Positions 142 through 34,155 of a stretch of 34,155 nt of DNA are shown piece after piece (within the stretch, counting starts at the first letter, position 1; every line of letters begins with the position of its first letter). The notes below the pieces were generated by a model, which saw only the letters and a program-made list of their open reading frames with translations, had not been told where the DNA came from and did no database searches. This DNA comes from a virus. The DNA is taken from positions 1 to 34,155 of the IMG/VR virus record IMGVR_UViG_3300033518_000155. One strand, 5' to 3'. The position numbers and the translations under genes were made by a program.

Positions 142-847
142 GTAAGTTGTTAGGTATTAAGTTTTCATAAAGGTCATCTTGTGTTGTAGGTATAGCAGTT
201 TCCATTCTGCCACCAGTTATCTCTACCCACTCGCCATTTTGTCGTCCATAAGTTTTACTATCAGTTGGTGCTTCTTGTACTCCACGATATCCACCTACAA
301 TAATATTCTTATCCGCTTTTTTAATTTGTTCTAGTATTTCATCAAACCCTTTAATTGCAGATATGTCAAGTCTATCATCTCCTTGCAAGAGTTCAAGCAT
401 GTCTCGAATTTCATCTGGCGTAGGTTTTTCAGGTATCTCGTATTCTATCTCGTTTAACTCAACAAGTTCGGCAATCTTTTTATAGTCTTTTTCTGTAATG
501 ATATAGTCTTTACCGTCTTTTGGTTTTAACTTTGATATTTTCTTTTCTGATTTAGTTATGTAATCATTTATAGATTTGTCAAGAGTATCTTGGTTACTAT
601 CTTTAAGCTCCTGAATTGCTTCTCTGAACTCTTCTGCTATTTCTTGACTAAGTAAGTCTATTGTGGTGTTATAACGTTCATTAATTTCACCAAGTATTTT
701 TTTAATAGAAAAATCTACATCAAGTGAGTCATAATGTTTGTTTACAATAGTTTCGACTACTTCTTTTATGTCTTTAAATGAATCAGAAATCTTTTTATCC
801 TGTTCATTTAGTCTTTTTATTAAAATTGCGTTTAATAGGTTATCCAT
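1..847 (-). CDS. Tail fibre, N-terminal part; the gene wraps the junction and continues at 34014 down to 31763 (1032 aa in total)
   Basis: ATG at 847. My translation MDNLLNAILIKRLNEQDKK...KPKDGKDYIITEKDY...EIRDMLELLQGDDRLDISAIKGF...IPNQWYLVTDFRG is stop-free to position 1. The frame matches ORF 31763..33796 (34861-33796=1065, divisible by 3). The KDGKD / L.G..RLD.SAIKG motif is typical of phage fibre N-termini. Confidence 0.8.
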   Translation of the reverse strand, partial: MDNLLNAILIKRLNEQDKKISDSFKDIKEVVETIVNKHYDSLDVDFSIKKILGEINERYNTTIDLLSQEIAEEFREAIQELKDSNQDTLDKSINDYITKSEKKISKLKPKDGKDYIITEKDYKKIAELVELNEIEYEIPEKPTPDEIRDMLELLQGDDRLDISAIKGFDEILEQIKKADKNIIVGGYRGVQEAPTDSKTYGRQNGEWVEITGGRMETAIPTTQDDLYENLIPNNLLIPNQWYLVTDFRGNYKISNAPTSTDEYHAGLNALTYDSSGTPIQLY

Positions 848-854
848 ATTATAT

Positions 855-863
855 ATTATACCA
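855..863 (-). promoter_or_regulatory. Extended -10 promoter TGGTATAAT, 7 nt upstream of the tail-fibre ATG (leaderless-type)
   Basis: Plus strand reads attatacca; the minus strand reads TGGTATAAT-N7-ATG(847). Confidence 0.6.
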
Positions 864-3393: not shown

Positions 3394-4923
3394 TTAGAAT
3401 CCTATACCTGTTTCTGTTAATGCGTTGCTGAGAGGATTTGACATATTATTACCTCCACTAAGGATAGTTTCAGATGTCTCAAATAACTCATTTGCTCTTC
3501 GGTTAACTACTTCATTTGCGGTATCCTGAATAGCCTTTAATTCACTAGCAACAAAGTCTGGTGAAGCATTAAAATAAATAATCTGTCCGCTTTCATTTCT
3601 TTTAGCTACGTTTGATAACGCAGAGTATGCGTTTGACATTCTCGTTCCTTCTGCATCTGACATACCTGCAAGAGCTACACCATTTGCTTTTGCTTCTGCT
3701 ACAGTTTTCACCCACCCTTCATCAAGAACTTGAGCTACTTTTGCAGTTACCTCTCTTTGTGCTGCTACATCTTTAAATGGATTAGAACCTATAAGTGAAA
3801 CACCACCCGCAAGTCCAAGTGACGCTTGTTTACCTACTTGACCCAATAATGAACCAAGGAACCCTCTTTGGGCACCAGTAACTCCAGATGCAGTATTGAT
3901 TCCTCTTTGGTTTCCTAAAATATTGTTTACTTTTTGGATAGTATCTTTAGAACCATCTACAAGTAATTTTTCCATTCTTGCCATTTCTGCCGCTTCTGCT
4001 TGTTTCTTTTCTGCACTTGCTGAGGAGGCTTGACTTCTTTGGAAGTTGAATTGTTCTCTTTGTAACGAGAGACTTGCTTGAGCCATACGTTTATTAAACT
4101 CTTGCATATCTACCTTAAGCCTAAATTCTGCACCAAGGTATTTTCCTGCTTTATTCAAAGCGTCTTCAAAATTCGTAGCTCCACTTATTTGGTCAAGTGC
4201 CTCTGGTGAAGCTCCATATTGTGCAGCAGTCAATGACATGTTTTGAATCTTTTCTTGCTTTTCCTTCTCATCTGCATAAGCTTGTTCAGTCTGTTTGATT
4301 TGTAGACTAAACTTCTTATCCTGTTCTTTGTTCAAGATTTCTTTGTTCTCTTGATATACAAACTGTTGAAATTCAAGCTTTGATTTTAGTTGAGATGTCT
4401 CAGCGTCTACCTTAGCTTTTACCCACGCCTGAGCGTCTTCAAGTCTCCCTGATTGACTATCACGAATGATTGATAAGTTAGCAAGTTCTCGTGTAGCTAA
4501 TACATTAAGTCGATTTTGTTGACCAGTAATAAAACTTGATGCAATGTTTTGCCCTTCTAGGTTTTGCATTTCAGTACGATACTGTTGAGTCTTTGATGAT
4601 ATAAGACTATCAAGTCGTGTTACATCTTCACGCAATGTTTTAACTCCTGATTGCTCTTCCATCTGAATTTGTCTATTACCTTGATTCCCGAGCAAGTCTG
4701 ATATTTCCTTAAGGTTAGTCATCCCCTCATCGCGAGTTTTAGTAGCTTGGTCAATGTTTTGTTGTGCCGAAGCTATAAATGGCTCAAATGAAAGAGTAGC
4801 ATTTTGTTTTGGTTTGTTTGGAAGTTTAATTGGCTGTTGGTTAGAAAAAGCAACGTCTGGTGATATCGCTGTCTCTTTTGCCTTGTTTGCTTCTTCATTT
4901 GTGTTGATTAGTTTTTCATCCAT
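3394..4923 (-). CDS. Internal virion-type protein (509 aa), coiled-coil and Gly-rich
   Basis: Full-length ORF with a 4-nt gap to the next gene. Q/E-rich coiled-coil middle and a Gly-rich segment (GFLGSLLGQVGKQASLGLAGGVSLIG). The function is inferred from position only. Confidence 0.6.
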   Translation of the reverse strand: MDEKLINTNEEANKAKETAISPDVAFSNQQPIKLPNKPKQNATLSFEPFIASAQQNIDQATKTRDEGMTNLKEISDLLGNQGNRQIQMEEQSGVKTLREDVTRLDSLISSKTQQYRTEMQNLEGQNIASSFITGQQNRLNVLATRELANLSIIRDSQSGRLEDAQAWVKAKVDAETSQLKSKLEFQQFVYQENKEILNKEQDKKFSLQIKQTEQAYADEKEKQEKIQNMSLTAAQYGASPEALDQISGATNFEDALNKAGKYLGAEFRLKVDMQEFNKRMAQASLSLQREQFNFQRSQASSASAEKKQAEAAEMARMEKLLVDGSKDTIQKVNNILGNQRGINTASGVTGAQRGFLGSLLGQVGKQASLGLAGGVSLIGSNPFKDVAAQREVTAKVAQVLDEGWVKTVAEAKANGVALAGMSDAEGTRMSNAYSALSNVAKRNESGQIIYFNASPDFVASELKAIQDTANEVVNRRANELFETSETILSGGNNMSNPLSNALTETGIGF

Positions 4924-4929
4924 ATATTT

Positions 4930-4938
4930 ATTATACCA
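4930..4938 (-). promoter_or_regulatory. Extended -10 promoter TGGTATAAT, 6 nt upstream of the ATG at 4923 (leaderless-type)
   Basis: The minus strand reads TGGTATAAT-AAATAT-ATG. Confidence 0.6.
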
Positions 4939-9801: not shown

Positions 9802-10550
9802 TATATTCTAAAAGTGTTACTTGCTCGTAAAACTGTTCTCTCATCTCGACTACGACGTGAATAGTATTCTTTTATTGCTTCCTCATCCATCTGAATAAGC
9901 TGTGCAATGTCATTCTTGTTTACCTTTCCTTTTTCAACTAGAAATGGGAGTGAGGCTTTTCGTGCAATGTATTCGTTGTGAATATCAGGGATTCCCAATT
10001 TGATAGTAGTATCAATTGGTAGAATCTCTTTAAGAGTACGATTGTAATAAATCTTTAATCCTTTCTCTACATTGACATCACTTGCTGGATATAGCCAAAT
10101 AGAAGAGTATTGTTTATCATAGTATACTGGTTCACCTGTAACACTCATGAAGTCTGATAATGCTTGATTCTCAGCTCCACCAACGTATCCAGATGGTGTA
10201 CCTATTAATCCACTTGACGCTAAGTCTGACTGGTCAATAGGTGATATTGCTGTCCATTTACCATCGGAATTTTTTACTTCAACACGAACAATCTCTAGTA
10301 ATCCATTAGGGAAAGTATAATCTTTCTTTCCTATCTCTAAGTCGGTAGTTGCAATAGGGTAGTCATTGTGGTTTCGGTCATCCTCTTCCCACTTCCCATC
10401 TGTTTGCATTGCAATAGAAAAATAGGCATTCTGTGCTTGGTTTACTCGCCGAGTCTTTGACTTTATAGGAAAAGAGTTATTGTCTGTTGAACAGATGTCA
10501 TCCATTTCTTGAACAATTCCGTTTCCATTTGTAATATCATTGAAATACAT
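9801..10550 (-). CDS. Virion structural protein (249 aa), possible head-tail adaptor or tail tubular A analogue
   Basis: ORF between the capsid and tail genes with its own promoter. The function is inferred from position only. Confidence 0.55.
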   Translation of the reverse strand: MYFNDITNGNGIVQEMDDICSTDNNSFPIKSKTRRVNQAQNAYFSIAMQTDGKWEEDDRNHNDYPIATTDLEIGKKDYTFPNGLLEIVRVEVKNSDGKWTAISPIDQSDLASSGLIGTPSGYVGGAENQALSDFMSVTGEPVYYDKQYSSIWLYPASDVNVEKGLKIYYNRTLKEILPIDTTIKLGIPDIHNEYIARKASLPFLVEKGKVNKNDIAQLIQMDEEAIKEYYSRRSRDERTVLRASNTFRI

Positions 10551-10558
10551 ATACTTAT

Positions 10559-10567
10559 ATTATACCA
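10559..10567 (-). promoter_or_regulatory. Extended -10 promoter TGGTATAAT, 8 nt upstream of the ATG at 10550
   Basis: The minus strand reads terminator-TTTTTTTG-TGGTATAAT-ATAAGTAT-ATG. Confidence 0.6.
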
Positions 10568-10592
10568 CAAAAAAACACCTATTTGGTGTTTT
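10568..10592 (-). terminator. Intrinsic terminator after the gene at 10579..10941
   Basis: Minus strand AACACC-AAATA-GGTGTT followed by a T-run. Nearly identical to the terminator at 29941..29966. Confidence 0.65.
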
Positions 10593-10941
10593 CTGCTAGA
10601 TTACTTAGAAAACTAATCCAGTCTTCTTTTGAATTTTTTGCTTGTGAAATTACTTCGGCTGTGATATCAATTACTGTACAAAATGGTTTATCATCCTTTA
10701 GTATGAATTCGCCTGGCATTTCAGTTTCTTTAAGAGAATCCCATACTTCAATAAGTGCCAAAGCGTTAATCTTTTCATTTACTTCCTTAAAGTTTTCTTG
10801 AGCTTCTTGTGTTTTTACCCCCTGTAGTTCTTTTATACTTTCTGAGTGTTCTACAATTTTTGCATTGATTGATTCAAGCTCAGCTTTAATTTCTAGTCGC
10901 TTTTCAATAAGTTCTTTTAATCCGTCTTTTTCTATAAACAT
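10579..10941 (-). CDS. Hypothetical coiled-coil protein (120 aa), capsid-module position
   Basis: ORF bracketed by a promoter (10973..10981) and a terminator. Confidence 0.65.
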   Translation of the reverse strand: MFIEKDGLKELIEKRLEIKAELESINAKIVEHSESIKELQGVKTQEAQENFKEVNEKINALALIEVWDSLKETEMPGEFILKDDKPFCTVIDITAEVISQAKNSKEDWISFLSNLAENTK

Positions 10942-10972: not shown

Positions 10973-10981
10973 ATTATACCA
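10973..10981 (-). promoter_or_regulatory. Extended -10 promoter TGGTATAAT, 31 nt upstream of the ATG at 10941
   Basis: Plus strand reads attatacca, directly downstream (minus sense) of the capsid-gene terminator. Confidence 0.5.
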
Positions 10982-11004: not shown

Positions 11005-11024
11005 AAAAAACCGCCGAAGCGATT
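11005..11024 (-). terminator. Intrinsic terminator after the major capsid gene
   Basis: Minus strand TCGC-TTCG-GCGG (UUCG tetraloop) followed by TTTTTT. Confidence 0.6.
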
Positions 11025-12491: not shown

Positions 12492-12710
12492 TTAGATTCT
12501 TGGTTTATACTTGGTTTCTTTCTTATCCCCGTATTCTTCTTCTAGTTGTTTGATAGCTGTTAGTATTGCATTTTTTGCTAATACATAACCATTGGTATCC
12601 TTTCCAAGTAGTGCGTCATCGCCCGCGTTCTTATGAACAACTGACAAAAGGAACTCGCGAATTGCTTTTGCCTTCTCTGGGTTATTACCTATCTCGTGTA
12701 AATAATTCAT
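12492..12710 (-). CDS. Hypothetical protein (72 aa)
   Basis: ORF beginning 1 nt after the portal stop (TAAC-ATG). Confidence 0.6.
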   Translation of the reverse strand: MNYLHEIGNNPEKAKAIREFLLSVVHKNAGDDALLGKDTNGYVLAKNAILTAIKQLEEEYGDKKETKYKPRI

Positions 12711-14479: not shown

Positions 14480-15841
14480 TTATAGTGTTTTGTTTAGTCT
14501 AACAGTTACCTCTGGCTCGAAACTTCTTTGTGTGACTGGATAAATCTCAAAGTACATTCGCATTATCAGACAGTCAAGATGGTCAGGACTTCGCCCCAAC
14601 AAATCCTTCATATCGTCTTTCTTTATTATACCATACTTTTCGGGATTTTCCTTATCTGACTTCAATACCGATAGTTCATCAATAATTTGTTGCTTGTGTG
14701 TATCAGTCTTAATTGCAATCTGGTGCATGTTGATTTTATTAGCAAGTGTAAATGCACACTCACTTTTAAAGTTAGTATAGTTGTTCTTCATTCCTAACTT
14801 GTTGAGGCTCGCTGTTGTTTGTGAAATGAATCCCTTAACACCTCTGAGCATATCAACTAATCCACCACCAACTCCATTCTCATCAATAACTATTTGTGAG
14901 TACGGTATATTGCGTTGAATAGCAAACTCTTTTATCTTTTCAGCTGTTACCGCCAAATCTTGAACAGTGTATTCGATAGTTTCCATCAAGTTATTACCAA
15001 CCCAGTAGTGTAGTACTGTTCTGTCTTTCCCCAACCGAGCAACGTCTACAACTAGATACCGCTGAGTGTTATCTGGTACGGTATTAGTAAACAAGTCAGA
15101 CATTGCATCATAGGTAACGAGCATAGTAGGGTCATCGTCATACTCCCAGTTACCATGCAAGAGACGTTCCCGCTGGTCTTTAGAAAGAGTTCGCTTTAAT
15201 CGTTCAAGGTAACCAGCGTCAATCATCTTGTTATCTTCTGGTAGTGCTTGAATGAAAGCCTTTTGAATAGGTAGCTCTCCTTTCTTATTTACTTGGTAGT
15301 AATCAAAGTAAAGGAAGTTTTTCGACGGGTTACAACTCATTAGTATCTTACCAGTCAAACTATACTTTTCGTTTTTCCAACGCCCAACAGAAGCAGACAA
15401 GTTGTTCTTAGCATTAGTTGAGAACTCTCCAGCTTCCTCTATCCATCCTCGAGTCATCTGCATAGAACCAAATCGCTCAAAGTTAGGGTCAGATGGCATA
15501 TCTTTAGCGTCTAATAGATATACTTTCGAGCCATTTGTCAAGTAGAATATATTATCCTGTGCATTGAATTTAAAATGCTCATCGGTAATACCCCAGTGTG
15601 AGAATACTTCATAGATAGATGGGATTGTAAACTTCCGCAAGTCGTTAAGTGTTTTACGAGCAATGAAGTAGTGAGTTTCAGGATATATAAAAGCGTCACC
15701 AAATATTAGAGAACAGCCAAGATAGGATTTACCTGAACCCTTAGAACCTCCATAGACTATTTCTTCTGTTACGTTGTCTATCCATAACTTTGCTACTTCC
15801 TTTTGCTTTTCGTTACCGTTTGTATTAAAGACTATTTGCAT
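14480..15841 (-). CDS. terL: Terminase large subunit (453 aa)
   Basis: Walker A-like YGGSKGSGKS near the N-terminus. The C-terminal half has the nuclease-type segment YLVVDVARLGKDRTVL. The start overlaps the upstream stop (TAATG). Confidence 0.85.
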   Translation of the reverse strand: MQIVFNTNGNEKQKEVAKLWIDNVTEEIVYGGSKGSGKSYLGCSLIFGDAFIYPETHYFIARKTLNDLRKFTIPSIYEVFSHWGITDEHFKFNAQDNIFYLTNGSKVYLLDAKDMPSDPNFERFGSMQMTRGWIEEAGEFSTNAKNNLSASVGRWKNEKYSLTGKILMSCNPSKNFLYFDYYQVNKKGELPIQKAFIQALPEDNKMIDAGYLERLKRTLSKDQRERLLHGNWEYDDDPTMLVTYDAMSDLFTNTVPDNTQRYLVVDVARLGKDRTVLHYWVGNNLMETIEYTVQDLAVTAEKIKEFAIQRNIPYSQIVIDENGVGGGLVDMLRGVKGFISQTTASLNKLGMKNNYTNFKSECAFTLANKINMHQIAIKTDTHKQQIIDELSVLKSDKENPEKYGIIKKDDMKDLLGRSPDHLDCLIMRMYFEIYPVTQRSFEPEVTVRLNKTL

Positions 15842-16227
15842 TAGAGTATCTGCATTCCTGTAATAGTTACATCAGCAGTTATGTTAGTTTCGTTTTGAGT
15901 TTCGACCTTTGTTGAGAACTCATCTTTCATCTTACGTTCTACCCATTTCCAGCTGTTTTCCTTCTTAACATCGTCTTCTAGTTCACCCTCTCGTCGTATA
16001 GCGTCTTGGATATTAGCAAGTGCCATAAGGTTTATAGCGTCTTCCCATGCTTGTAGTTTTATAGAAAGAGCAGGGTCATTGACAACCCACTTAGAAAGTG
16101 TTGTAGGGTCAAATCCTACACGATTGCAAGCTCTATTGCGTGAAAGACCAGCCTCTAGATAAGGACGTAAACTTTCTATAATTGTATTTTTTTGTTGTTC
16201 TGTATAGGGTTTTCCTTGTTGTGACAT
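15841..16227 (-). CDS. Terminase small subunit candidate (about 128 aa), HTH-containing
   Basis: The track ORF starts at a TTG at 16245. The first ATG (MSQQGKPYTEQQ) is at 16227, 6 nt after TGTTATAAT. It has an HTH-like segment LSRNRACNRVGFDPTTLSKWV and lies immediately upstream of terL. Confidence 0.55.
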   Translation of the reverse strand: MSQQGKPYTEQQKNTIIESLRPYLEAGLSRNRACNRVGFDPTTLSKWVVNDPALSIKLQAWEDAINLMALANIQDAIRREGELEDDVKKENSWKWVERKMKDEFSTKVETQNETNITADVTITGMQIL

Positions 16228-16233
16228 ACCATA

Positions 16234-16242
16234 ATTATAACA
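16234..16242 (-). promoter_or_regulatory. Extended -10 promoter TGTTATAAT, 6 nt upstream of the ATG at 16227 (start of the packaging/structural operon)
   Basis: The minus strand reads terminator-TTTTTTTG-TGTTATAAT-TATGGT-ATG. Confidence 0.6.
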
Positions 16243-16243
16243 C

Positions 16244-16265
16244 AAAAAAAGCCCTTTTCAGGACT
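16244..16265 (-). terminator. Intrinsic terminator after the 62-aa gene
   Basis: Minus strand AGTCCT-GAAA-AGGGCT (GNRA loop, one G-U pair) followed by TTTTTTT. Confidence 0.65.
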
Positions 16266-16453
16266 TATTTAACTATTTTAATTAGTTTGCTTTGTAGGTT
16301 ACTATGTTGGTTACCTACTAGGTTACGTTGAACAGTAACTGGCTGATATCCATTTAATCTTGTTACGTCTAATATGTGATGACTAGTAATAGGCATGTTA
16401 TTACCTACAACAAATACAAACGCTAGTAATGATGTAATGATTTTCGTTTTCAT
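16265..16453 (-). CDS. Small protein (62 aa) with a hydrophobic N-terminus (signal peptide or TM)
   Basis: MKTKIITSLLAFVFVVGNN...; a TATAAT box (16462..16467) lies 8 nt upstream of the ATG. Confidence 0.55.
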   Translation of the reverse strand: MKTKIITSLLAFVFVVGNNMPITSHHILDVTRLNGYQPVTVQRNLVGNQHSNLQSKLIKIVK

Positions 16454-16461
16454 ATATACCT

Positions 16462-16467
16462 ATTATA
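16462..16467 (-). promoter_or_regulatory. -10 box TATAAT, 8 nt upstream of the ATG at 16453
   Basis: The minus strand reads GTATATAAT-AGGTATAT-ATG. Confidence 0.45.
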
Positions 16468-16570
16468 TACTATTTGAAATCATATGCAAGAAGTTATCCA
16501 CAGATTCCAACTAATCAATAATCCTTACAAGTTCAACTATCTGGTAATTCAGGATAGTTCAAAATAAATA

Positions 16571-16579
16571 TGGTATAAT
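16571..16579 (+). promoter_or_regulatory. Extended -10 promoter TGGTATAAT on the PLUS strand (the only one in this orientation)
   Basis: Plus strand reads aaatatggtataatggag, the same 9-mer used by the minus-strand genes. Confidence 0.5.
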
Positions 16580-16585
16580 GGAGTT

Positions 16586-16900
16586 ACAACACAATCAAAA
16601 CCATCTAATAGGGGAACTAGATGTTAAACTTACTCCTACCAAACACCAAGCAGTTCATAAGGTACATATGGGAAAACATGGAAAAACGACTTGCCCTTTG
16701 TCGTCCGTGTCTAATGATATGTACCGTATGGATTGATTCCAACGAGGGAGGTTTGTGATAGCTTAGCTTGTACTCTGACTGGAAACCTGATTGCTTTATA
16801 GTCTTCAATAGCTTAGAAAGGGAGAAAAGTACTATGGAGACTTTATTATAAAACAGAATAGTATTTAAGTAAAATAAAAGACACCTGATGATGTCTATTT
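16586..16900 (+). ncRNA. Candidate plus-strand transcript (~320 nt): structured sRNA or mRNA for a 45-aa Cys-containing peptide (16621..16758)
   Basis: It runs from the plus-strand promoter to the bidirectional terminator. There is a 9-bp long-range helix, GGTACATAT (16661..16669) with ATATGTACC (16717..16725), enclosing the hairpin ACGAC-N9-GTCGT. There are purine patches AGGGGA, GAGGGAGG and AAGGGAGAA. A small ORF MLNLLLPNTKQFIRYIWENMEKRLALCRPCLMICTVWIDSNEGGL is preceded by AGGGGA. Confidence 0.3.
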
Positions 16901-16904
16901 TATA
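16871..16904. terminator. Bidirectional intrinsic terminator
   Basis: AGACA-CCTGATGA-TGTCT flanked by an A-run on the left and TATTTTAT on the right. It overlaps the stop of the 47-aa minus-strand gene. Confidence 0.55.
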
Positions 16905-17038
16905 ACTTTACGTCTTATCTTTTCTATTGAATAAATAATGTTATCTATCCTGTCACTGTCTAACTTAGCTAATGCACAAGCAACGAGAAATTCTCTTTGT
17001 CTTTCTTGTATCCATTCATTCTCTTGCTCTTTGAACAT
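16895..17038 (-). CDS. Small protein (47 aa), not in the ORF track
   Basis: My translation is MFKEQENEWIQERQREFLVACALAKLDSDRIDNIIYSIEKIRRKVIK. TGCTATAAT lies 6 nt upstream of its ATG, and the terminator follows directly. Confidence 0.5.
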   Translation of the reverse strand: MFKEQENEWIQERQREFLVACALAKLDSDRIDNIIYSIEKIRRKVIK

Positions 17039-17044
17039 GCTTTT

Positions 17045-17053
17045 ATTATAGCA
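17045..17053 (-). promoter_or_regulatory. Extended -10 promoter TGCTATAAT, 6 nt upstream of the ATG at 17038
   Basis: The minus strand reads TGCTATAAT-AAAAGC-ATG; two more TATAAT boxes lie just upstream. Confidence 0.55.
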
Positions 17054-17074
17054 CGCTAATATTTATTATACAAA

Positions 17075-18388: not shown

Positions 18389-18541
18389 CTATTTATCGTT
18401 ATTTAATATGATTGCTTCGATATTTAACAATTTATTTCCGCAATAACAATTTACAAATTTAGTTGGTTTTGTTGCTAGTGAATATCGTTTACATGATTCA
18501 CAATACCAAATATTTTCACGTGCTTGTTGTAATATTGTCAT
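18389..18541 (-). CDS. Small Zn-ribbon protein (50 aa), not in the ORF track
   Basis: My translation is MTILQQARENIWYCESCKRYSLATKPTKFVNCYCGNKLLNIEAIILNNDK, with CxxC and CxC pairs. It exactly fills the gap between two genes. Confidence 0.55.
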   Translation of the reverse strand: MTILQQARENIWYCESCKRYSLATKPTKFVNCYCGNKLLNIEAIILNNDK

Positions 18542-20081: not shown

Positions 20082-20112
20082 GTTAGTCTTGGTTAATTTC
20101 TCGTGTTTATAA

Positions 20113-20214
20113 TTATTGATTTGCGATTTCTAAATCTCGGTACTCATCATAATCCATTTCTTGTGAGTCGGATAATGTTTCGTATTCTACAAAGTCTACT
20201 GGTAAGTTTTCCAT
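20113..20214 (-). CDS. Very small acidic protein (33 aa), not in the ORF track
   Basis: My translation is MENLPVDFVEYETLSDSQEMDYDEYRDLEIANQ. It is preceded by the conserved leader CGTTAATCAATTAAAATT. Confidence 0.35.
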   Translation of the reverse strand: MENLPVDFVEYETLSDSQEMDYDEYRDLEIANQ

Positions 20215-20255
20215 AATTTTAATTGATTAACGTAAGCCTCATTGCTTATACGTAC

Positions 20256-20264
20256 ATGATAGCA
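20256..20264 (-). promoter_or_regulatory. Extended -10-like box TGCTATCAT followed by a hairpin and the CGTTAATCA leader element
   Basis: The minus strand reads TGCTATCAT-N23 (hairpin ACGTA..AGC/GCTTACGT)-CGTTAATCAATTAAAATT-ATG(20214). Confidence 0.4.
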
Positions 20265-20293
20265 AAAAAGAAAAAACCTGTCTACTTGACAAG
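20264..20293 (-). terminator. Intrinsic terminator after the gene at 20311..20739
   Basis: Minus strand CTTGTC-AAGTA-GACAGG followed by TTTTTTCTTTTTT. Confidence 0.6.
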
Positions 20294-20310
20294 TTCTTAA
20301 TCTATTGTAT

Positions 20311-20739
20311 TTACATCTCTAATACTTTTAATATTTGTTTGATTTTATCTTGATAAAACTCTTCAACTTCTTTTGGTGTCATGTTCCAAGATTCAAATAT
20401 TCTCTCATAATCTTCGTCAAGAATATTTTTTCCGTCTTTATCTTTCTTATAAACTGGTTTGACAACATTATCAATAAAATATCTTTCTTTTCTATAATTT
20501 TCTACAATATTCTTAAAAACATTTTCTTTTAAACTTTCATCTGTTTTATAGTTTTCTTTAAAAGAATGAATTGATGATATGAATTCTATATCATCAATAT
20601 AATAAACTCCAAGGGTTATTCCTCCAGTCTTGTCTGGTAATGCCTTCTGATGAAATTCGCATTTTGATTTATCAAACTCATAGTCTTTATCTAAAATAGT
20701 TACTCTAATATCTTTTAATTGTTTAATCTTGTTTTCCAT
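20311..20739 (-). CDS. Hypothetical protein (142 aa)
   Basis: The track start at 20763 is a TTG. The first ATG (MENKIKQLKD) is at 20739, 7 nt after a TATAAT box. Confidence 0.65.
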   Translation of the reverse strand: MENKIKQLKDIRVTILDKDYEFDKSKCEFHQKALPDKTGGITLGVYYIDDIEFISSIHSFKENYKTDESLKENVFKNIVENYRKERYFIDNVVKPVYKKDKDGKNILDEDYERIFESWNMTPKEVEEFYQDKIKQILKVLEM

Positions 20740-20746
20740 GCAATTA

Positions 20747-20752
20747 ATTATA
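20747..20752 (-). promoter_or_regulatory. -10 box TATAAT, 7 nt upstream of the ATG at 20739, with TTGCAT as a -35 candidate
   Basis: The minus strand reads TTGCAT-N16-TATAAT-TAATTGC-ATG. Confidence 0.5.
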
Positions 20753-20858
20753 CTCCTGTACAAAATATATGCAAGCTAATCCATTGTATTTAGTATATTA
20801 GATAAGTCTTCGAGTTCCCCTTATTAATGGAACTTCTTTATATATTTCTTTCATACAT

Positions 20859-21263
20859 CTATTGTAACATATTTTTTAAGATTTCAAGCTGTTGTTCATA
20901 ATAAAATGAATCTACTTTTATAGGTTTATTTTTTTCCTTTTCAAGATTTTTAAACCATTCAAGCCCCATTATTTCTACTATCTTTGAAGCCCAATAGCTT
21001 TCATTATGATGAAGCATTGAGTGACAATGATTACAAAGAGGAATCAAATTATCAAAATTATATCGTAATACAGAAGATTTGCTTTTGTGGACATGATGGT
21101 GAGCTACTTGTGTATAATAGGTACATTTGTCATTACCATCTACTCCATTTAGTAAACAGACAGGATTTCTATTTTTTACAATAGGAGTTAAAAAAGAATC
21201 GCATTTTTTTTGTAATTTTGAATTAACTGTATTTGATTTTTTTCTAATAGGCGTACGTTTCAT
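20859..21263 (-). CDS. NinG/Rap-like recombination endonuclease (134 aa)
   Basis: Cys/His pattern C..........C....AHHHVHKSKSSVLRYNFDNLIPLCNHCHSMLHHNESYW...IVEIMGLEWFKNLE resembles the NinG family (..GH..........R....N....C..C). Confidence 0.55.
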   Translation of the reverse strand: MKRTPIRKKSNTVNSKLQKKCDSFLTPIVKNRNPVCLLNGVDGNDKCTYYTQVAHHHVHKSKSSVLRYNFDNLIPLCNHCHSMLHHNESYWASKIVEIMGLEWFKNLEKEKNKPIKVDSFYYEQQLEILKNMLQ

Positions 21264-21270
21264 ACTTTTT

Positions 21271-21279
21271 ATTATACCA
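21271..21279 (-). promoter_or_regulatory. Extended -10 promoter TGGTATAAT, 7 nt upstream of the ATG at 21263
   Basis: The minus strand reads TGGTATAAT-AAAAAGT-ATG, starting 4 nt after the upstream stop codon. Confidence 0.55.
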
Positions 21280-21956: not shown

Positions 21957-22268
21957 TTATTCATAGTCTTCTGGTGTTGTTAGTTCGATATTAAAGTTTT
22001 CGCCTAGCCCCTTAATCCACATATTCATCAGTATATCAATTTGTTTTGATGATAATTTTTCAGTTGAATCTAAATTCCATATCTTTTTAATTATTTGCTT
22101 TTCTATATTTTTAAAAAAATACAAATCTGGTTGTATTTCCCAAGACATCTTACTAAGAATCTCATCTGCAGTTAAATTTAAACTAGAACAAGTATTAGCC
22201 ATTTCTCTATATCTAGCGTGATTCATATTTCTTTGACTGTTTGATACACTTGTCTGTTCCATGTACAC
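21957..22268 (-). CDS. Hypothetical protein (about 100 aa)
   Basis: ORF with an uncertain start (ATG at 22268, 22262 or about 22226). The first two lie inside a hairpin arm. Confidence 0.6.
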   Translation of the reverse strand: MYMEQTSVSNSQRNMNHARYREMANTCSSLNLTADEILSKMSWEIQPDLYFFKNIEKQIIKKIWNLDSTEKLSSKQIDILMNMWIKGLGENFNIELTTPEDYE

Positions 22269-22334
22269 CGCCCGTTGGAGTTACGTTAATCATTGTATAG
22301 GCGGTCTACACAGAACACAAAGTTTCCGCGTAAG

Positions 22335-22367
22335 AAAAAAGGTTACAACGGATAACCGTGTTGTAAG
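22335..22367 (-). terminator. Intrinsic terminator 3' of the tRNA
   Basis: Minus strand TTACAAC(AC)GG-TTAT-CCGTTGTAA followed by CCTTTTTT. Confidence 0.6.
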
Positions 22368-22389
22368 TTCGGACTTGATTAATCAAGTG

Positions 22390-22461
22390 TACACAAGGCA
22401 GGACTCGAACCTGCAACCTAGCGAGTATAAGTCGCTTGCACAACCATTGTGCTACTCGTGT
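22390..22461 (-). tRNA. tRNA-Ile, anticodon UAU (reads AUA)
   Basis: Minus-strand cloverleaf: acceptor ACACGAG/CTTGTGT (one G-U pair), U8, D arm GCAC-AATGGTT-GTGC, anticodon arm AGCGA-CTTATAC-TCGCT, variable loop AGGTT, T arm GCAGG-TTCGAGT-CCTGC, discriminator A. No CCA is encoded. Confidence 0.85.
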
Positions 22462-23469
22462 ATAGTCCCAACTTGTATGTACAGCGGTCGAGACATTAAT
22501 ACGCCTATTGCCAACTTATTAATCCATCTGCTTAACTTAGTTGGGTAGGGAATTACTTCCATAGGCATATAAGACAAGGTAAGGATTTACACCTTACATA
22601 AATAGTTTTAAATATGATTAACTTGGTTTCAGAGTGTAACTCTTGATGCGGTATATCACTTTATGTCCATTACATATTTAGGTTTTATATTTAGTTCCGA
22701 ATTAAATATATTTAACTGTCACTCTCAGTCTACTATTCTAACCTTAGCGTCTACTTATTTCGCCACTTGTCTTTGCTGACTAGGTTTACAATTTACTGTA
22801 AACTGTAAACTTATTGTCAGTTCCCCAAACGCTAGCCTTACAGAAATTAATCTTGCAGGTGAGTATACTCCTAATGTTGGGAGAACTAACAACAAACGTC
22901 ATTAGTTTCAACATACAATAAATTGCTACAATATCAAAGTCACAATTTTATATAACTTAAAAATGTATGTGTATATTTAACGGTAACATGATATTTTCTC
23001 CGTTGTTGGCTGTTGAGGATAACCCTCGGCAGTTACCCACCGTTATCTACACATCACTAGACACTACTCCCTACAAGTCAATGCAAGTAACAAATAATGC
23101 GGAATTAGTGATGTGTTCATATACTGTACAGTATGATTTACAGTTTACTCTGTTTAGTTAATATACATATATATTCTTGAAAAGTATATAAAACACCTTT
23201 ACAGATTATATATGTATTGATTTACAGTTTACTCTGCTACCACCGTAGCAAAACATGGCTTAGAGCGTATCACAATGATATGATAAACACATGCTTTTGA
23301 TACGTTTATGTAGTAGATAGTGGAAGCCTAAGACAAAAACTTCCACAACCAACCACACAAAATGATTAGTAAAGATATAGTTGCAAGTCTATCGTCCTTG
23401 CGTACGCTTCACAGTGAAGTGATAGGATACGGCTTACCAATAAACATACCCTATCACCTCACCATGAGG
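22462..23469 (-). ncRNA. Candidate large structured RNA and/or control region upstream of the tRNA (no credible ORF)
   Basis: About 1 kb without a minus-strand ORF in a tightly packed genome. It holds several perfect helices: 23049..23059 with 23106..23116 (11 bp), 23419..23426 with 23450..23457 (8 bp), 23320..23326 with 23340..23346 (7 bp), and 22579..22597. A -10 box lies at 23205..23210. The transcript would end at the terminator after the tRNA. Confidence 0.3.
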
Positions 23470-23811
23470 TTAAAAAGGAATATCTTCTGGATTTACGTCA
23501 ATTTCCTGGGAATCAATTTCTTTTGATTCACCTTCAACTTTCTTAATATTCCACACAGTCACTTGTTGATAAAACTTTCCGTTGTATTCCTTAACTTTAT
23601 ATTTAAGTTCAACTTCAACCTTGTCACCTTCCACAAACCCTAGTGAATCTACAAATTTTGCATATTCTCCTTTCTTGAAAATATTTGCAATAAATTCATT
23701 TGGATATTGAACCCCTGACTCAACCAGTAGAATATCTCGTGTCTTGTATTCATCGCCTGCTTGTGTTGTTCCTGTCTTTACTTCTAAAATCTTTTGTACT
23801 GTACAAATCAT
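23470..23811 (-). CDS. DUF3127-like OB-fold protein with an SSB-type C-terminal tip (113 aa): probable single-stranded DNA-binding protein
   Basis: EYKTRDILLVESGVQYPNEFIANIF...GDKVEVELKYKVKEYNGKFYQQVTVWNIKKVE resembles DUF3127. An acidic tail ends in PEDIPF, the canonical SSB tip. It lies adjacent to Erf. Confidence 0.6.
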   Translation of the reverse strand: MICTVQKILEVKTGTTQAGDEYKTRDILLVESGVQYPNEFIANIFKKGEYAKFVDSLGFVEGDKVEVELKYKVKEYNGKFYQQVTVWNIKKVEGESKEIDSQEIDVNPEDIPF

Positions 23812-24535: not shown

Positions 24536-24629
24536 AAAATGTATTTAAGTTATGCTCTCGTTCGAGCCATTCGTTATTTGTAATATCTTTTTGTTCGCTG
24601 GTAATAATTGAATAGTCTTTTAGTTTCAT
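24528..24629 (-). CDS. Small protein (33 aa), not in the ORF track
   Basis: My translation is MKLKDYSIITSEQKDITNNEWLEREHNLNTFYA. It is preceded by CGTTAATCAAT directly before the ATG. Confidence 0.35.
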   Translation of the reverse strand: MKLKDYSIITSEQKDITNNEWLEREHNLNTFYA

Positions 24630-24662
24630 ATTGATTAACGTAAGTTTTACTTACAAAAACAG

Positions 24663-24671
24663 TATATACCA
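24663..24671 (-). promoter_or_regulatory. Extended -10-like box TGGTATATA followed by a hairpin and the CGTTAATCA leader element
   Basis: The minus strand reads TGGTATATA-N22 (hairpin GTAAGT-AAA-ACTTAC)-CGTTAATCAAT-ATG(24629). A TTGACA lies further upstream. Confidence 0.45.
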
Positions 24672-24753
24672 ACAATAAAAACAAGGCAAGTAAAAAAGAC
24701 TAAACACAATGATTTAATCTTTTGTCAAATTGCACCACCTATTGCATATGCAA

Positions 24754-29407: not shown

Positions 29408-29572
29408 TTATTTAAAACCTATTTGATTAGATTCTCGCAAGTGGTAATCCATTACGTCTAGCATAACTTCATCTGGTACAAAGTTTTTTTCCTTGTGCAT
29501 TGCTTCTTTTATAGAACTAGCTTCCACCCATTTCTTTACTATATAAAGATTTGTTTTTTTTAATGGTTTCAT
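29408..29572 (-). CDS. Small early protein (54 aa), not in the ORF track
   Basis: My translation is MKPLKKTNLYIVKKWVEASSIKEAMHKEKNFVPDEVMLDVMDYHLRESNQIGFK. TGGTATAAT lies 7 nt upstream of its ATG. Confidence 0.5.
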   Translation of the reverse strand: MKPLKKTNLYIVKKWVEASSIKEAMHKEKNFVPDEVMLDVMDYHLRESNQIGFK

Positions 29573-29579
29573 ACGCAAT

Positions 29580-29588
29580 ATTATACCA
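29580..29588 (-). promoter_or_regulatory. Extended -10 promoter TGGTATAAT, 7 nt upstream of the ATG at 29572
   Basis: The minus strand reads TGGTATAAT-ATTGCGT-ATG, just after a GC-rich terminator. Confidence 0.55.
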
Positions 29589-29608: not shown

Positions 29609-29642
29609 AAAAAAGGAGGGTGACAATATGTCCCCTCCCTTT
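29609..29642 (-). terminator. Strong intrinsic terminator after the gene at 29645..29899
   Basis: Minus strand AAGGGAGGGG-ACATATTGTCA-CCCTCCTT (one bulge) followed by TTTTTT. Confidence 0.7.
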
Positions 29643-29925: not shown

Positions 29926-29934
29926 ATTATATCA
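29926..29934 (-). promoter_or_regulatory. Extended -10 promoter TGATATAAT (candidate early promoter), 26 nt upstream of the ATG at 29899
   Basis: The minus strand reads TTTTA-TGATATAAT-AGAGTAG..., immediately downstream of the terminator at 29941..29966. Confidence 0.5.
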
Positions 29935-29940
29935 TAAAAC

Positions 29941-29966
29941 AAAAAAACACCAAATGGTGTTCTCTT
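29941..29966 (-). terminator. Intrinsic terminator in the lysis-to-early intergenic region
   Basis: Minus strand AACACC-ATTT-GGTGTT followed by TTTTTTT. Confidence 0.65.
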
Positions 29967-30100
29967 GATACTTTGAATTGTGGGTTACAAGAATAACCAG
30001 ATACTCCTGTACGATAATCGTAAATAATATATATTATTATTTCTTGTAAGTGACGGTATCTCTACCGTCCATAACAGTATAACAGCTGGTAAAATAATAG

Positions 30101-31773: not shown

Positions 31774-34155
31774 ACCAGAAAGTTCCGTTTGATATTATAG
31801 TTATTTTTTCCCCTGGATTCAAAACTTTTGTTGAGCTTGTATCTATCATTTGTGTTGAGAACGGGTCAAGCGTTATGACTCCAGCACCAACGTTCTTAAA
31901 TGTGTATTTTTCACCTTGAAGCCCTATTGCTGTAGGTAATGGTTGAGTAAATGTTCCTGTATTAAATATTACAACATCATCACTCCTAAGTACTGTTGTC
32001 GCACTAGATACAGTTCTTATTGAGTATACGTTTGTTACGATTCTATCCCATTTTGGAATTGAAGCGTCAACACATAAGTATTTACCTGATTGCCATGTAG
32101 CAATCTCTTGAAGCGTTCCTGCAGGTCTACTTGCTGGCGTAGCATGTAGTGGGTCTGATTGTAGTGAACGAATAATAAATCTACCTCTAAACGTCAATAG
32201 CTCGGTGCTATTAAGTCCAAAATAAGAAAGCGGCCCGTAATAGGAAAGTCCTGTCGTAAGTTGTATTGATGTGAAGCTTTCTAACGTAGCAAAAATACTA
32301 TTGAAATAGAACGCATGAGTGAACGTACAATTCTGCATTAGTCCCAATATCGTATTTGACCTAAAGGCATTTGAGATATCGTAGAACACACAAAAGTTTA
32401 TACCATAAACTGTCGAAGTAATAACGTTAGTAGCAAAATATGAGTTTGATATAGATACAATGAAACTGTTTATAATACTTTGAGCAAAATATGAGTTTGA
32501 TATAGAACTAACTGGTGTGTTTGTAATATTACCAATACAGGCAACACCATTCAATGACGTAACCACCGATGATACAATTCCTGTTATCGTTGAGTTTGTA
32601 CAACTGTGTACTTGTGAACTGTCTACATTTCTCAATGTACTTGAAGTAGCATTGACATAAGGGCTCTTTTTTAATATATAAGTTTGACCGTTTACCATGT
32701 TTACTTTGGTAGAAGTAGTCGCACCTAACAATGTATATCGCTCTCCGCTGATTTCACTCGCTGTTATTTGAGTGATATTAGCATGTGAAACGATATCATA
32801 TTCATACCCGACATTTCTCAACATACTTGTATTGAGAACTTGGTCATAGTTTCTTAATCCGTTCGTGTTGAACGTTGCATACTTTACTCCTGTCGTAAGG
32901 TCGGGGCTAAAACTTCCTGCACCAGACGCTTGGTTAGTATTACCCATGAATCGTATATCCTCACAGATATGAGCCCAATACAATCCCTCTGCAGGAGCTG
33001 TTGTAGTTGTTCTAATACATACAAAAATTCTACCATTGTATTTTCTAACTGTACCAACAGATGATGTCCCCGCAGACCATGGAGTCGCGGAGGTCTTGTA
33101 TCGGTAAAACTGTTGTGAACGATAGTCAGCCTCTACAAAAAGATTATTAATATAGTTTTTACGAGCTACAATACGCCCATAAAATGCTAAGTCTAATGAT
33201 TTCCAAGTCATCGTAAAATATGAGTTGATACTACCAAGAGAGGTCAGGTCAAAGTTATTACCGATATCAATAAAGATACCTGTTATTGGATTCAATTCCC
33301 ATGCAGTACCCTCGTTTAATCTATGGTAAATAAATTCCCCGTCTCCTTTTACACTAATAGTAAATGTCTCATCTCTAATCCCGTCGTAGAATGCTTGAAA
33401 GTCACCTCCTAATTGAACAGTTGAACTATCAATAATTTCATCTATCCAAACATCACCAGATATCGAGAAAGGAGGGACAGTTATTACTCCTGTATAGTTT
33501 GAAAGTACATTGATAGTCATTGTGTAATACCCGTACCAATTCAAACCAGTAAAATCTATTGCTAGAGTTAAGTCAGTTATAGTTTGAGTTACAGGGTCAT
33601 AAGTCCAGTCGGTACCTTCGTTTGCGTCTGTATAGATGAGCGGACTTCCACCCCATCCAGCATCAACGTATAGTTGGAAACTTCCATCTCGTACTCGGTC
33701 TTCGAATCCATCAGTAGCACCAATAACTGTACCAACAATCTGCATGTTACTTCCATCAAGAGGAATAAATCCTAGATAGGTACTGTTGTTAATCAAGGAA
33801 CCACCTCCATCTCCTGAACCTGATGGTTCTACTACTTCTCCTAATGTCTGTGCTACATGGTTCGTAGTAATCGGTGTTGGATTTTGAAAGAAAGTAATTT
33901 CTTCTTTATTAAATGTTTTTGAATACCCAACAGGGTTTATTGTGTTTTCAGAAGAAGCAAGTAAGTAAATTTCCTCTGGGTCTCCATCGACGATAGGGGT
34001 AAGTCCATCATCATAATAAAGCTGTATAGGTGTACCAGATGAATCATAGGTAAGTGCATTTAATCCTGCATGGTATTCATCAGTTGATGTAGGAGCGTTT
34101 GATATTTTATAGTTTCCTCTAAAGTCTGTTACTAGATACCATTGGTTTGGAATAA
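31763..34155 (-). CDS. Tail fibre, central and C-terminal part (the same gene as 1..847; beta-helix-like C-terminal region)
   Basis: The track ORF begins at a TTG (33796), but the frame stays open to the window edge: ...YYDDGLTPIVDGDPEEIYLLASSENTINPVGYSKTFNKEEITFFQNPTPITTNHVAQTLGEVVEPSGSGDGGGSLINNSTYL.... The repetitive ISNSYFA rungs suggest a parallel beta-helix. Confidence 0.8.
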   Translation of the reverse strand, partial: IPNQWYLVTDFRGNYKISNAPTSTDEYHAGLNALTYDSSGTPIQLYYDDGLTPIVDGDPEEIYLLASSENTINPVGYSKTFNKEEITFFQNPTPITTNHVAQTLGEVVEPSGSGDGGGSLINNSTYLGFIPLDGSNMQIVGTVIGATDGFEDRVRDGSFQLYVDAGWGGSPLIYTDANEGTDWTYDPVTQTITDLTLAIDFTGLNWYGYYTMTINVLSNYTGVITVPPFSISGDVWIDEIIDSSTVQLGGDFQAFYDGIRDETFTISVKGDGEFIYHRLNEGTAWELNPITGIFIDIGNNFDLTSLGSINSYFTMTWKSLDLAFYGRIVARKNYINNLFVEADYRSQQFYRYKTSATPWSAGTSSVGTVRKYNGRIFVCIRTTTTAPAEGLYWAHICEDIRFMGNTNQASGAGSFSPDLTTGVKYATFNTNGLRNYDQVLNTSMLRNVGYEYDIVSHANITQITASEISGERYTLLGATTSTKVNMVNGQTYILKKSPYVNATSSTLRNVDSSQVHSCTNSTITGIVSSVVTSLNGVACIGNITNTPVSSISNSYFAQSIINSFIVSISNSYFATNVITSTVYGINFCVFYDISNAFRSNTILGLMQNCTFTHAFYFNSIFATLESFTSIQLTTGLSYYGPLSYFGLNSTELLTFRGRFIIRSLQSDPLHATPASRPAGTLQEIATWQSGKYLCVDASIPKWDRIVTNVYSIRTVSSATTVLRSDDVVIFNTGTFTQPLPTAIGLQGEKYTFKNVGAGVITLDPFSTQMIDTSSTKVLNPGEKITIISNGTFWYEV
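34015..34155. repeat. Terminal direct repeat, copy B (identical to 1..141)
   Basis: Same 141 nt as the window start; position 1 is equivalent to 34015, giving a 34,014-bp unit. Confidence 0.9.

Follow-up and report, generated by a model that had tools for sequence, protein, structure and literature searches.

The window analysed here, the whole of IMG/VR virus record IMGVR_UViG_3300033518_000155 (34,155 nucleotides, nt), is from a tailed uncultivated phage, a member of a large metagenomic family whose defining features are its SU10-type portal protein and adaptor. Nine of its 48 genes, or about one fifth, begin with an ATG that lies 6-8 nt downstream of a TATAAT hexamer, most often in the form of an extended -10 promoter element (TGnTATAAT), and sequences that could pair with the anti-Shine-Dalgarno (anti-SD) sequence are depleted at its gene starts. 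The best explanation of this arrangement is probably that the first cistrons of the transcription units are leaderless or near-leaderless, and that the downstream genes are tightly coupled and initiate independently of SD pairing. A first-pass annotation had proposed such an interpretation, which agrees with every sequence-based test: the exclusive tie of the motif to gene starts, the relationship between the TG extension and the -35 element, the adjoining terminators, the conservation in relatives and the peak in spacer length.

Promoter boxes and terminators at gene starts

The first-pass annotation had listed ten minus-strand ATGs positioned 6-8 nt after a TATAAT or TGnTATAAT box. Nine of these sites are exact in coordinate, box and spacer. 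The tenth, given as probable at 7917, is not supported: the nearest candidates there are TATATA at N9 and GATAAT at N0 (where the number is the count of nucleotides between box and ATG), and neither is a consensus box that is usably spaced. The nine sites, followed by two predicted promoters that are separated from their genes by leaders, are as follows.

845..863, minus strand: TGGTATAAT, N7, ATG 847; tail-fibre-like gene of 1,032 amino acids (aa) that wraps the circular junction
4921..4938, minus strand: TGGTATAAT, N6, ATG 4923; 509-aa structural gene
10548..10567, minus strand: TGGTATAAT, N8, ATG 10550; SU10-type adaptor gene, with the box fused to a terminator T-tract
16225..16242, minus strand: TGTTATAAT, N6, ATG 16227; small terminase gene (terS), the index site of the finding
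16451..16489, minus strand: TTGCAT (-35), 16 nt, TATAAT, N8, ATG 16453; gene for a 62-aa signal-peptide protein
17036..17053, minus strand: TGCTATAAT, N6, ATG 17038; 47-aa open reading frame (ORF) 16895-17038
20737..20774, minus strand: TTGCAT (-35), 16 nt, TATAAT, N7, ATG 20739; 142-aa gene
21261..21279, minus strand: TGGTATAAT, N7, ATG 21263; HNH/NinG-like nuclease gene, with an intergenic gap of just 19 nt
29570..29588, minus strand: TGGTATAAT (TTGCAC at -35), N7, ATG 29572; 54-aa ORF
10973..10981, minus strand: TGGTATAAT, leadered promoter after the terminator at 11009-11024, with a 31-nt SD-less leader to ATG 10941
29926..29967, minus strand: TGATATAAT (box at 29934), leadered promoter after the hairpin at 29940-29967, with a 26-nt SD-less leader to ATG 29899; probably the start of the early region

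The start codon is ATG at all nine leaderless-type sites, and their spacers measure 6, 6, 6, 7, 7, 7, 7, 8 and 8 nt. The association of box and ATG is real and far exceeds chance, with 10 occurrences of TATAAT-N6-8-ATG compared to 3.45 +/- 1.68 in shuffled sequence. It is also tied exclusively to gene starts: TATAAT at N6-8 precedes 9 of the 700 minus-strand ATGs, and each of the nine is the first ATG of a called gene. When the 40 nt upstream of each gene were shuffled 5000 times, a mean of 0.32 such sites was obtained, with a maximum of 4. The extended element is likewise over-represented, with 13 copies of TGNTATAAT, of which the minus strand carries 11, while dinucleotide shuffles yield 3.83 +/- 1.76 copies and none of 100 reaches 13. 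The strand split of TGnTATAAT (11 versus 2) favours the coding strand, and 9 of the 11 minus-strand copies reside in non-coding DNA, which makes up 12.6% of the genome (binomial P = 3e-7).

The anatomy of these boxes is that of predicted sigma70-type promoters, mostly of the extended -10 class. All 11 candidates contain a perfect TATAAT hexamer, and nine carry the TGn extension. The two that do not (16453 and 20739) have a TTGCAT -35 element spaced 16 nt from the hexamer; TTGCAC and TTGCTG are found at -35 of sites 29572 and 21263, respectively, and the terminator-fused sites contain no -35 element. The -35 element thus appears to be dispensable where TG is present, and such complementarity between the two elements is the behaviour of sigma70-type promoters.

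Six intrinsic-terminator hairpins were recognised, with z scores of -2.1 to -5.2 and T-runs of 6-7. Five promoters adjoin the T-run of a hairpin that folds better than shuffled sequence (-6.5 to -19.3 kcal/mol, z -2.1 to -5.2), so that the terminator occupies the -35 position, which fits a reliance on the extended -10 element. The three terminators that had been named in the first-pass annotation do fold (-8.6 to -19.3 kcal/mol), and two further terminator-promoter fusions, at 29940-29967 and 11009-11024, were identified in addition to them.

16249..16266, minus strand: intrinsic terminator whose T-run adjoins the terS promoter; -8.6 kcal/mol, z = -2.75
10570..10594, minus strand: intrinsic terminator and T-run directly upstream of the 10550 promoter; -12.4 kcal/mol, z = -3.5
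29611..29642, minus strand: strong intrinsic terminator lying immediately upstream of the 29572 promoter; -19.3 kcal/mol, z = -5.2

RNA polymerase generally initiates 7-9 nt beyond the hexamer, on a purine preceded by a pyrimidine; in Escherichia coli the most frequent distance is 7-8 nt, and a pyrimidine at -1 together with a purine at +1 is favoured. By this rule the N6 and N7 spacers would place +1 on the A of the ATG, and a pyrimidine is present at -1 before all nine ATGs.

Start context and conservation in the phage family

The near-absence of SD sites, also noted in the first pass, was confirmed by evaluating the region from -20 to -3 of each start for pairing with the anti-SD at -4.5 kcal/mol or below, with random same-strand windows serving as background. 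Only 2 of 49 start regions (4%) pair, as opposed to 14.6% of random windows, which indicates that SD-like sequence is depleted beyond mere absence. None of the nine leaderless-type starts has an SD at a functional distance; an AGGAG at 20739 is placed inside the -10 region or farther upstream. The same measure, applied to four phages whose hosts are of known type, gave the following values.

Flavobacterium phage 11b (SD-free host type): 3%, background 15%
Cellulophaga phage phi46:1 (SD-free host type): 12%, background 19%
SAR11 phage HTVC010P (SD-using host type): 34%, background 11%
Prochlorococcus phage P-SSP7 (SD-using host type): 31%, background 15%

The low value of the window agrees with those of the SD-free controls. 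The start context of the window is A-rich, with A at -3 in 27 and at -6 in 30 of the 49 starts, while G is avoided upstream. The base at -1 is T in 33 of the starts and T or C in 43. This A-rich logo is the one that has been described for Bacteroidetes (PMC3155529, PMC6847099). Half of the gene junctions (24 of 48) are of 4 nt or less, among them the tight junctions remarked upon in the first pass, nine of the form TAA-n-ATG and three TAATG, and this packing fits translational coupling.

Assignment of start codons is supported by comparison with relatives. For terS, the adaptor, the 17038 ORF, 16453 and 4923, alignments with relatives begin at residue 1, and the DNA upstream of these five conserved starts is non-coding and divergent. 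Three small ORFs absent from the gene track had been suggested in the first pass, of which the 47-aa ORF at 16895-17038 proves to be a real gene, with 74% aa identity in relative L149 and 44% in L154; both orthologues have an extended -10 box positioned 6 nt from the ATG. The ORF at 29408-29572 is preceded by a full terminator/promoter cassette and lies in a region that the retrieved relatives do not cover, and the basis for the ORF at 18389-18541 is its tight packing.

Close relatives, in a family that was defined by its portal protein, span 94% to 54% portal identity, and the cassettes are conserved among them. At terS, the box is TGATATAAT at N6 in L149 and TGGTATAAT at N8 in L154 and L081. 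The adaptor cassette, TGGTATAAT at N8, is kept in L149 and L154 and occurs at N7 in L145, which has 54% portal identity. The cassette of the 4923 orthologue is retained in L154, that of 16453 in L149 together with its TTGCAT -35 element, and the leadered promoter before ATG 10941 in L146, L149 and L154. Box and ATG thus stay at orthologous genes as the spacer sequence and the terminator stems change; in the terS and adaptor alignments, the hairpins themselves are retained with different stems. Even members at 41-43% portal identity are SD-free and carry TGnTATAAT, either at N6-7 or with leaders of approximately 22-26 nt.

Family-wide, 80 IMG/VR loci retrieved by portal alignment were examined, comprising 1.02 Mb and 1,279 ORF starts. 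TATAAT is located at N6-8 before 77 of these starts (6.0%), with 35 at N6, 17 at N7 and 25 at N8 compared to 1-3 at most other spacers. The corresponding frequency is 0.32% for other ATGs and 0.33% for ORF starts in loci that share only the large terminase (TerL) and are mostly from Bacteroidota. Mean SD pairing in the family is 8%, and a TAhhTTTG box, which is of the TAnnTTTG type, lies upstream of only 11 of the 1,279 ORFs. One member with a GC content of 47% preserves the order of terminator, TGGTATAAT, N7 and ATG. Together, the family-wide enrichment and the cassette in this GC-richer member identify the architecture as a conserved hallmark of the family.

Mechanism, alternatives and the host

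In the proposed mechanism, at least 11 sigma70-type promoters would split the one-directional gene array into transcription units, and five of these promoters, fused to the T-tract of the preceding terminator, would leave their units insulated. Nine of the 11 are situated 6-8 nt before the first ATG of the unit, such that the predicted 5′ end would coincide with the A of the AUG or precede it by 1-2 nt. Ribosomes would then load on the 5′-terminal AUG without SD pairing, and the SD-less downstream cistrons, in their A-rich context and with their TAA-n-ATG or TAATG junctions, would be reached by SD-independent initiation or by re-initiation. Searches with Pfam and PHROGs, which covered about 40 of the 48 proteins, detected no integrase, sigma factor or RNA polymerase, and the host holoenzyme is therefore the simplest candidate reader of the boxes.

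Several points weigh against this scheme. The two N8 sites (10550 and 16453) have an A at position 7, which could give a 2-nt leader rather than none. Additional TATAAT boxes upstream of 17038 (at 17070 and 17079) could yield leadered mRNAs, as could read-through from upstream units wherever no terminator intervenes. Other difficulties concern the host. Among isolates, phages of Flavobacteriia and Bacteroides have the closest relatives of TerL, holin, exonuclease and Erf, and the SD-free start context with A at -3 and T at -1, which matches the published Bacteroidetes logos (PMC3155529), also points to a Bacteroidota host. The primary sigma factor of Bacteroidetes has a different specificity, and TATAAT promoters are reportedly unused there (PMC6847099).

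It could be that the promoters are real, but that functional mRNAs are mostly long, leadered and polycistronic read-through products, the leaderless transcripts being a minor form and the proximity of box and ATG a result of genome compaction. At five sites the cassette does sit in an intergenic gap of only 19-37 nt, no upstream terminator is recognisable at four of the nine leaderless-type sites, and the SD-less internal genes are evidently translated within long mRNAs, so that a 5′-terminal AUG is not required. However, compaction by itself fails to explain the restriction to 6-8 nt across 80 genomes, as spacers of 9-15 nt would be equally compact and yet are rare, and four leaderless-type cassettes directly follow terminators that should block read-through. 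We consider this account unlikely. It is very hard to credit, in turn, that TATAAT-N6-8-ATG arises from the AT-richness of start regions, or acts as an A/U element that enhances translation, and has no promoter function. Start regions are A/T-rich throughout, and SD-free organisms depend on A-rich upstream sequence (PMC6847099), but shuffled upstream regions give 0.32 sites where nine are observed, the equally AT-rich and SD-free Flavobacterium phage 11b has no such site, and the Bacteroidota loci fall far below the family in its frequency (0.33% versus 6.0%). Moreover, the TG extension, its complementarity with the -35 element and the adjacency of terminators are properties of promoters rather than of translation initiation regions. 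An archaeal TATA box was also considered and rejected, since transcription would, at this spacing, start inside ORFs, and the hairpin terminators are bacterial in type. Predicted leaderless first cistrons, followed by SD-independent coupled genes, consequently remain the preferred interpretation.

The first-pass annotation had further deduced that the host must tolerate SD-independent and leaderless initiation and possess a sigma70-type promoter specificity. This constraint is valid and can be sharpened to a combination of Bacteroidota-like translation signals and non-Bacteroidota promoters. The host signals therefore appear to conflict, with start contexts and shared genes that resemble those of Bacteroidota and putative promoters that are of the sigma70 type, not TAnnTTTG. 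There are 16 TAnnTTTG boxes on the minus strand of the window, all inside genes and none in non-coding minus-strand DNA; Flavobacterium phage 11b has such a box upstream of 7 of its 65 genes. E. coli-type genes, for their part, are not expressed in Bacteroidetes (PMC6847099). TerL has thousands of homologues, which, in named genomes, are nearly all from Bacteroidota, at 50-54% identity. These loci share with the window only TerL and a few replication genes, and the motif is found in none of them, which suggests that TerL is a mosaic module and is not decisive for the host.

One way to reconcile these signals is a Bacteroidota host in which TGnTATAAT is read by a diverged phage-encoded or redirected specificity factor, or by an unrecognised activity of a host sigma factor. 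There is precedent for a phage factor with a specificity of its own in T4 gp55, which reads TATAAATA. The isolate relatives, the many Bacteroidota genomes with related TerL proteins and the start context described above all favour such a host, and phage 11b has the same cassette of terminator, promoter, 5 nt and ATG, built around a TAtaTTTG box. Nevertheless, every recognisable promoter is of the TATAAT type, including that of the presumed early region, and with no TAnnTTTG in non-coding minus-strand DNA there would be no means of expressing a phage factor first. The scan of approximately 40 of the 48 proteins revealed nothing sigma-like, and the motif is a textbook sigma70 extended -10 element, with a TTGCAT -35 where TG is missing. 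A specialised factor in a Bacteroidota host thus seems quite improbable. In a more general form, the tentative and somewhat doubtful suggestion can be made that the family infects Bacteroidota and yet uses only TGnTATAAT, or that it marks an uncharacterised host lineage combining SD-independent translation with classical sigma70 promoters. If the host does prove to be a member of the Bacteroidota, an undescribed promoter-recognition activity would exist in that phylum, or a cryptic phage factor would retarget the host RNA polymerase.

Other hosts were evaluated. Genetic code 4 or 25 was rejected: there is no in-frame TGA, TGG is used 118 times, and TGA, although rare as a stop codon (1 of 48 window genes), terminates 13 of 188 family genes (in L081, L118, L145 and L151-L154) and 10 of 65 genes in Flavobacterium phage 11b. 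A SAR11 or Prochlorococcus host is unlikely, given that the control phages are SD-enriched (34% and 31%). Taxa reported to be SD-scarce are Prochlorococcus, Mollicutes, Akkermansia and some Candidate Phyla Radiation (CPR) groups (PMC10783764). The indications for a CPR host are mixed; SD is used both in a locus from a Shapirobacteria single cell and in a phage binned to Paceibacterota. Two near-identical contigs from metagenome-assembled genomes that encode portal homologues (L056 and L058) are binned to Paceibacterota and to ‘Tenericutes’, respectively, indicating that host labels derived from such binning are unreliable for this phage group.

Relatives of the phage also carry glycosyltransferases, methyltransferases and a dTDP-glucose 4,6-dehydratase (L151, 4657-5646). 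As a clue to the host, the L151 dehydratase was uninformative, matching only other phages. The dehydratase is common, at 65-82% identity, to many contigs of about 35 kb and to the unrelated 86-kb phage L159, in which 0 of 32 starts carry an SD and promoters of the form TGGTATACT occur. These SD-free signals in L159 suggest that one shared host type supports several phage families.

Gene content and comparison with known systems

The first and last 141 nt of the window are identical (1-141 = 34015-34155), an exact overlap that implies a complete genome of 34,014 bp, circularly closed or terminally redundant. Its GC content is 34.5%, and every gene is on the minus strand. Neither this genome closure nor the family-wide spread of the architecture had been recognised in the first-pass annotation.

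847, across the circular junction, to 31763, minus strand: fibre-like gene encoding a 1,032-aa protein

This fibre-like gene runs through the junction, and what looks like a start at 33745 is not genuine. In minus-strand order, small early genes begin at about 29.9 kb and are followed by an O-like replication initiator, a split DNA methyltransferase, an exonuclease, Erf and SSB. Beyond SSB, 1.2 kb of non-coding DNA harbour a tRNA-Ile(UAU); next come a second exonuclease and the HNH/NinG nuclease, then small genes, terS, terL, the SU10-type portal, the capsid gene, the SU10-type adaptor and tail genes, and lastly the wrap-around fibre gene, a holin and an M15 endolysin. A megablast search with an 8-kb query matched none of 50,697 phage records, no isolated phage has a protein related to the portal, and the tRNA is the sole match in an Rfam scan of the window.

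That tRNA-Ile, with anticodon UAU, is at 22389-22461 on the minus strand. ATA codons number 300 (about 3% of the total), and the tRNA may supplement a host that decodes ATA poorly. In the surrounding 1.2 kb without coding-strand genes (22262-23470), GAGTAAACTGTAAATCA has two copies, close to 23232 and 23150, ACAGTTTACAGTAAATTGTAAAC is found near 22810, and the non-coding stretch of relative L154 holds a similar ACTGTAAACTGTAAAC; these repeats may be a candidate origin or a set of regulator binding sites. The DNA methyltransferase comprises two minus-strand ORFs, 27144-26800 and 26833-26486, which overlap by 34 nt and match consecutive parts of one PHROG family, and could reflect a frameshift, a programmed shift or a pseudogene. 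A 15-mer, CTTACGTTAATCAAT, is common to the gaps 24536-24753 and 20082-20310. In both it lies 3′ of an imperfect extended -10 element (TGGTATATA, TGCTATCAT) and just 5′ of a short unannotated ORF, and it may be a shared leader or operator element.

Two further regions contain extended -10 boxes. A copy of TGGTATAAT inside terL (14625-14633, minus strand) is conserved at the DNA level in L081, L146, L149 and L154, and it may represent an internal promoter for the portal gene about 140 nt downstream or merely conserved coding sequence. Upstream of the terS promoter, a non-coding block of approximately 170 nt (16560-16720) is conserved with L154 (8050-8200) and L146 and not with the closer relative L149. 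This block includes a hairpin with a T-run (GACGAC...GTCGTTTTT) and, on the opposite strand, an extended -10 element, TGGTATAAT at 16571-16579 (plus strand), which is TGATATAAT in L154. It may correspond to a pac-site region or to an antisense or small RNA.

Group C of the GeneMarkS-2 classification, in which a -10 box is adjacent to the ORF, has been described in Actinobacteria and Deinococcus-Thermus (PMC6028130, PMC3160421, PMC4007540, PMC12340547), and in Deinococcus-Thermus the box adjoining the ORF drives leaderless genes (PMC12340547). The phage resembles this group in having a Pribnow-type -10 a few nucleotides before the first AUG of an operon and no SD at that gene, as well as in the TG peak that precedes the box in low-GC genomes (PMC3160421). 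Unlike the phage, however, group C organisms use SD at internal and leadered genes, where the phage does not (4% versus a 15% background). Their genomes are mostly high in GC with a degenerate TANNNT box, whereas the phage has 34% GC and a perfect TGnTATAAT. Finally, the trait belongs here to a phage family.

Group B, with non-SD starts, consists to 90% of FCB bacteria (PMC6028130), and the likeness of the phage to group B Bacteroidota is found in its below-background SD frequency, the A at -3 and -6, the T at -1 and the paucity of upstream G, for all of which the values of phage 11b match. The promoters differ: those of Bacteroidota are TTTG/TAnnTTTG, and the phage places TATAAT at the ATG and has no non-coding TAnnTTTG (PMC6847099). 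In addition, mRNAs of Flavobacterium johnsoniae are mostly leadered, with an average of 33 nt (PMC6847099), in contrast to the predicted leaderless units of the phage.

Flavobacterium phage 11b (L082) is the closest in layout. It is a genome of approximately 36 kb with its genes on one strand, among them Erf, SSB, a methyltransferase, HNH, terS and terL, and it shares the succession of hairpin, T-run, box, short spacer and ATG (for example ‘...gagggtattttttttGTATATTTGTCACA ATG’ at 21116). Its terminator/TAtaTTTG cassettes are located at 12600-12642 and 21080-21116, one of the boxes being 5 nt from the ATG, so that leaderless-type cassettes also exist in a confirmed Flavobacterium phage. The box is nevertheless the Bacteroidota TAtaTTTG, and homology with the window is limited to TerL and a few replication genes.

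Among phages, a classic leaderless mRNA is that of lambda cI, transcribed from PRM, so that translation of an individual phage gene from a 5′-terminal AUG has a precedent. In Thermus phage P23-45, middle and late genes are expressed from TGn-extended -10 promoters by the host sigma-A holoenzyme, with no need for a -35 element (PMC7403470). The present phage differs from both in that a single promoter class appears to serve every part of the genome, including the early region, without evidence of a switch between classes, and in combining systematic leaderless placement (9 of 48 genes; 6% of ORF starts in the family) with complete SD independence.

This has practical consequences. Gene-finding programs and annotators that rely on SD sites will assign wrong starts and overlook small genes in an abundant family of metagenomic phages, and the terminator-TGGTATAAT-N7-ATG cassettes, being compact and self-insulating, are candidate synthetic parts for SD-independent expression. 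The conflict between the expression signature and the Bacteroidota host suggested by gene sharing likewise turns host prediction into a concrete, testable question. The mechanisms involved are known ones in a new combination, common to a large uncultivated phage family: the translation signals of group B, the promoter placement of group C and a classical sigma70 box form a signature that falls outside the usual host categories.

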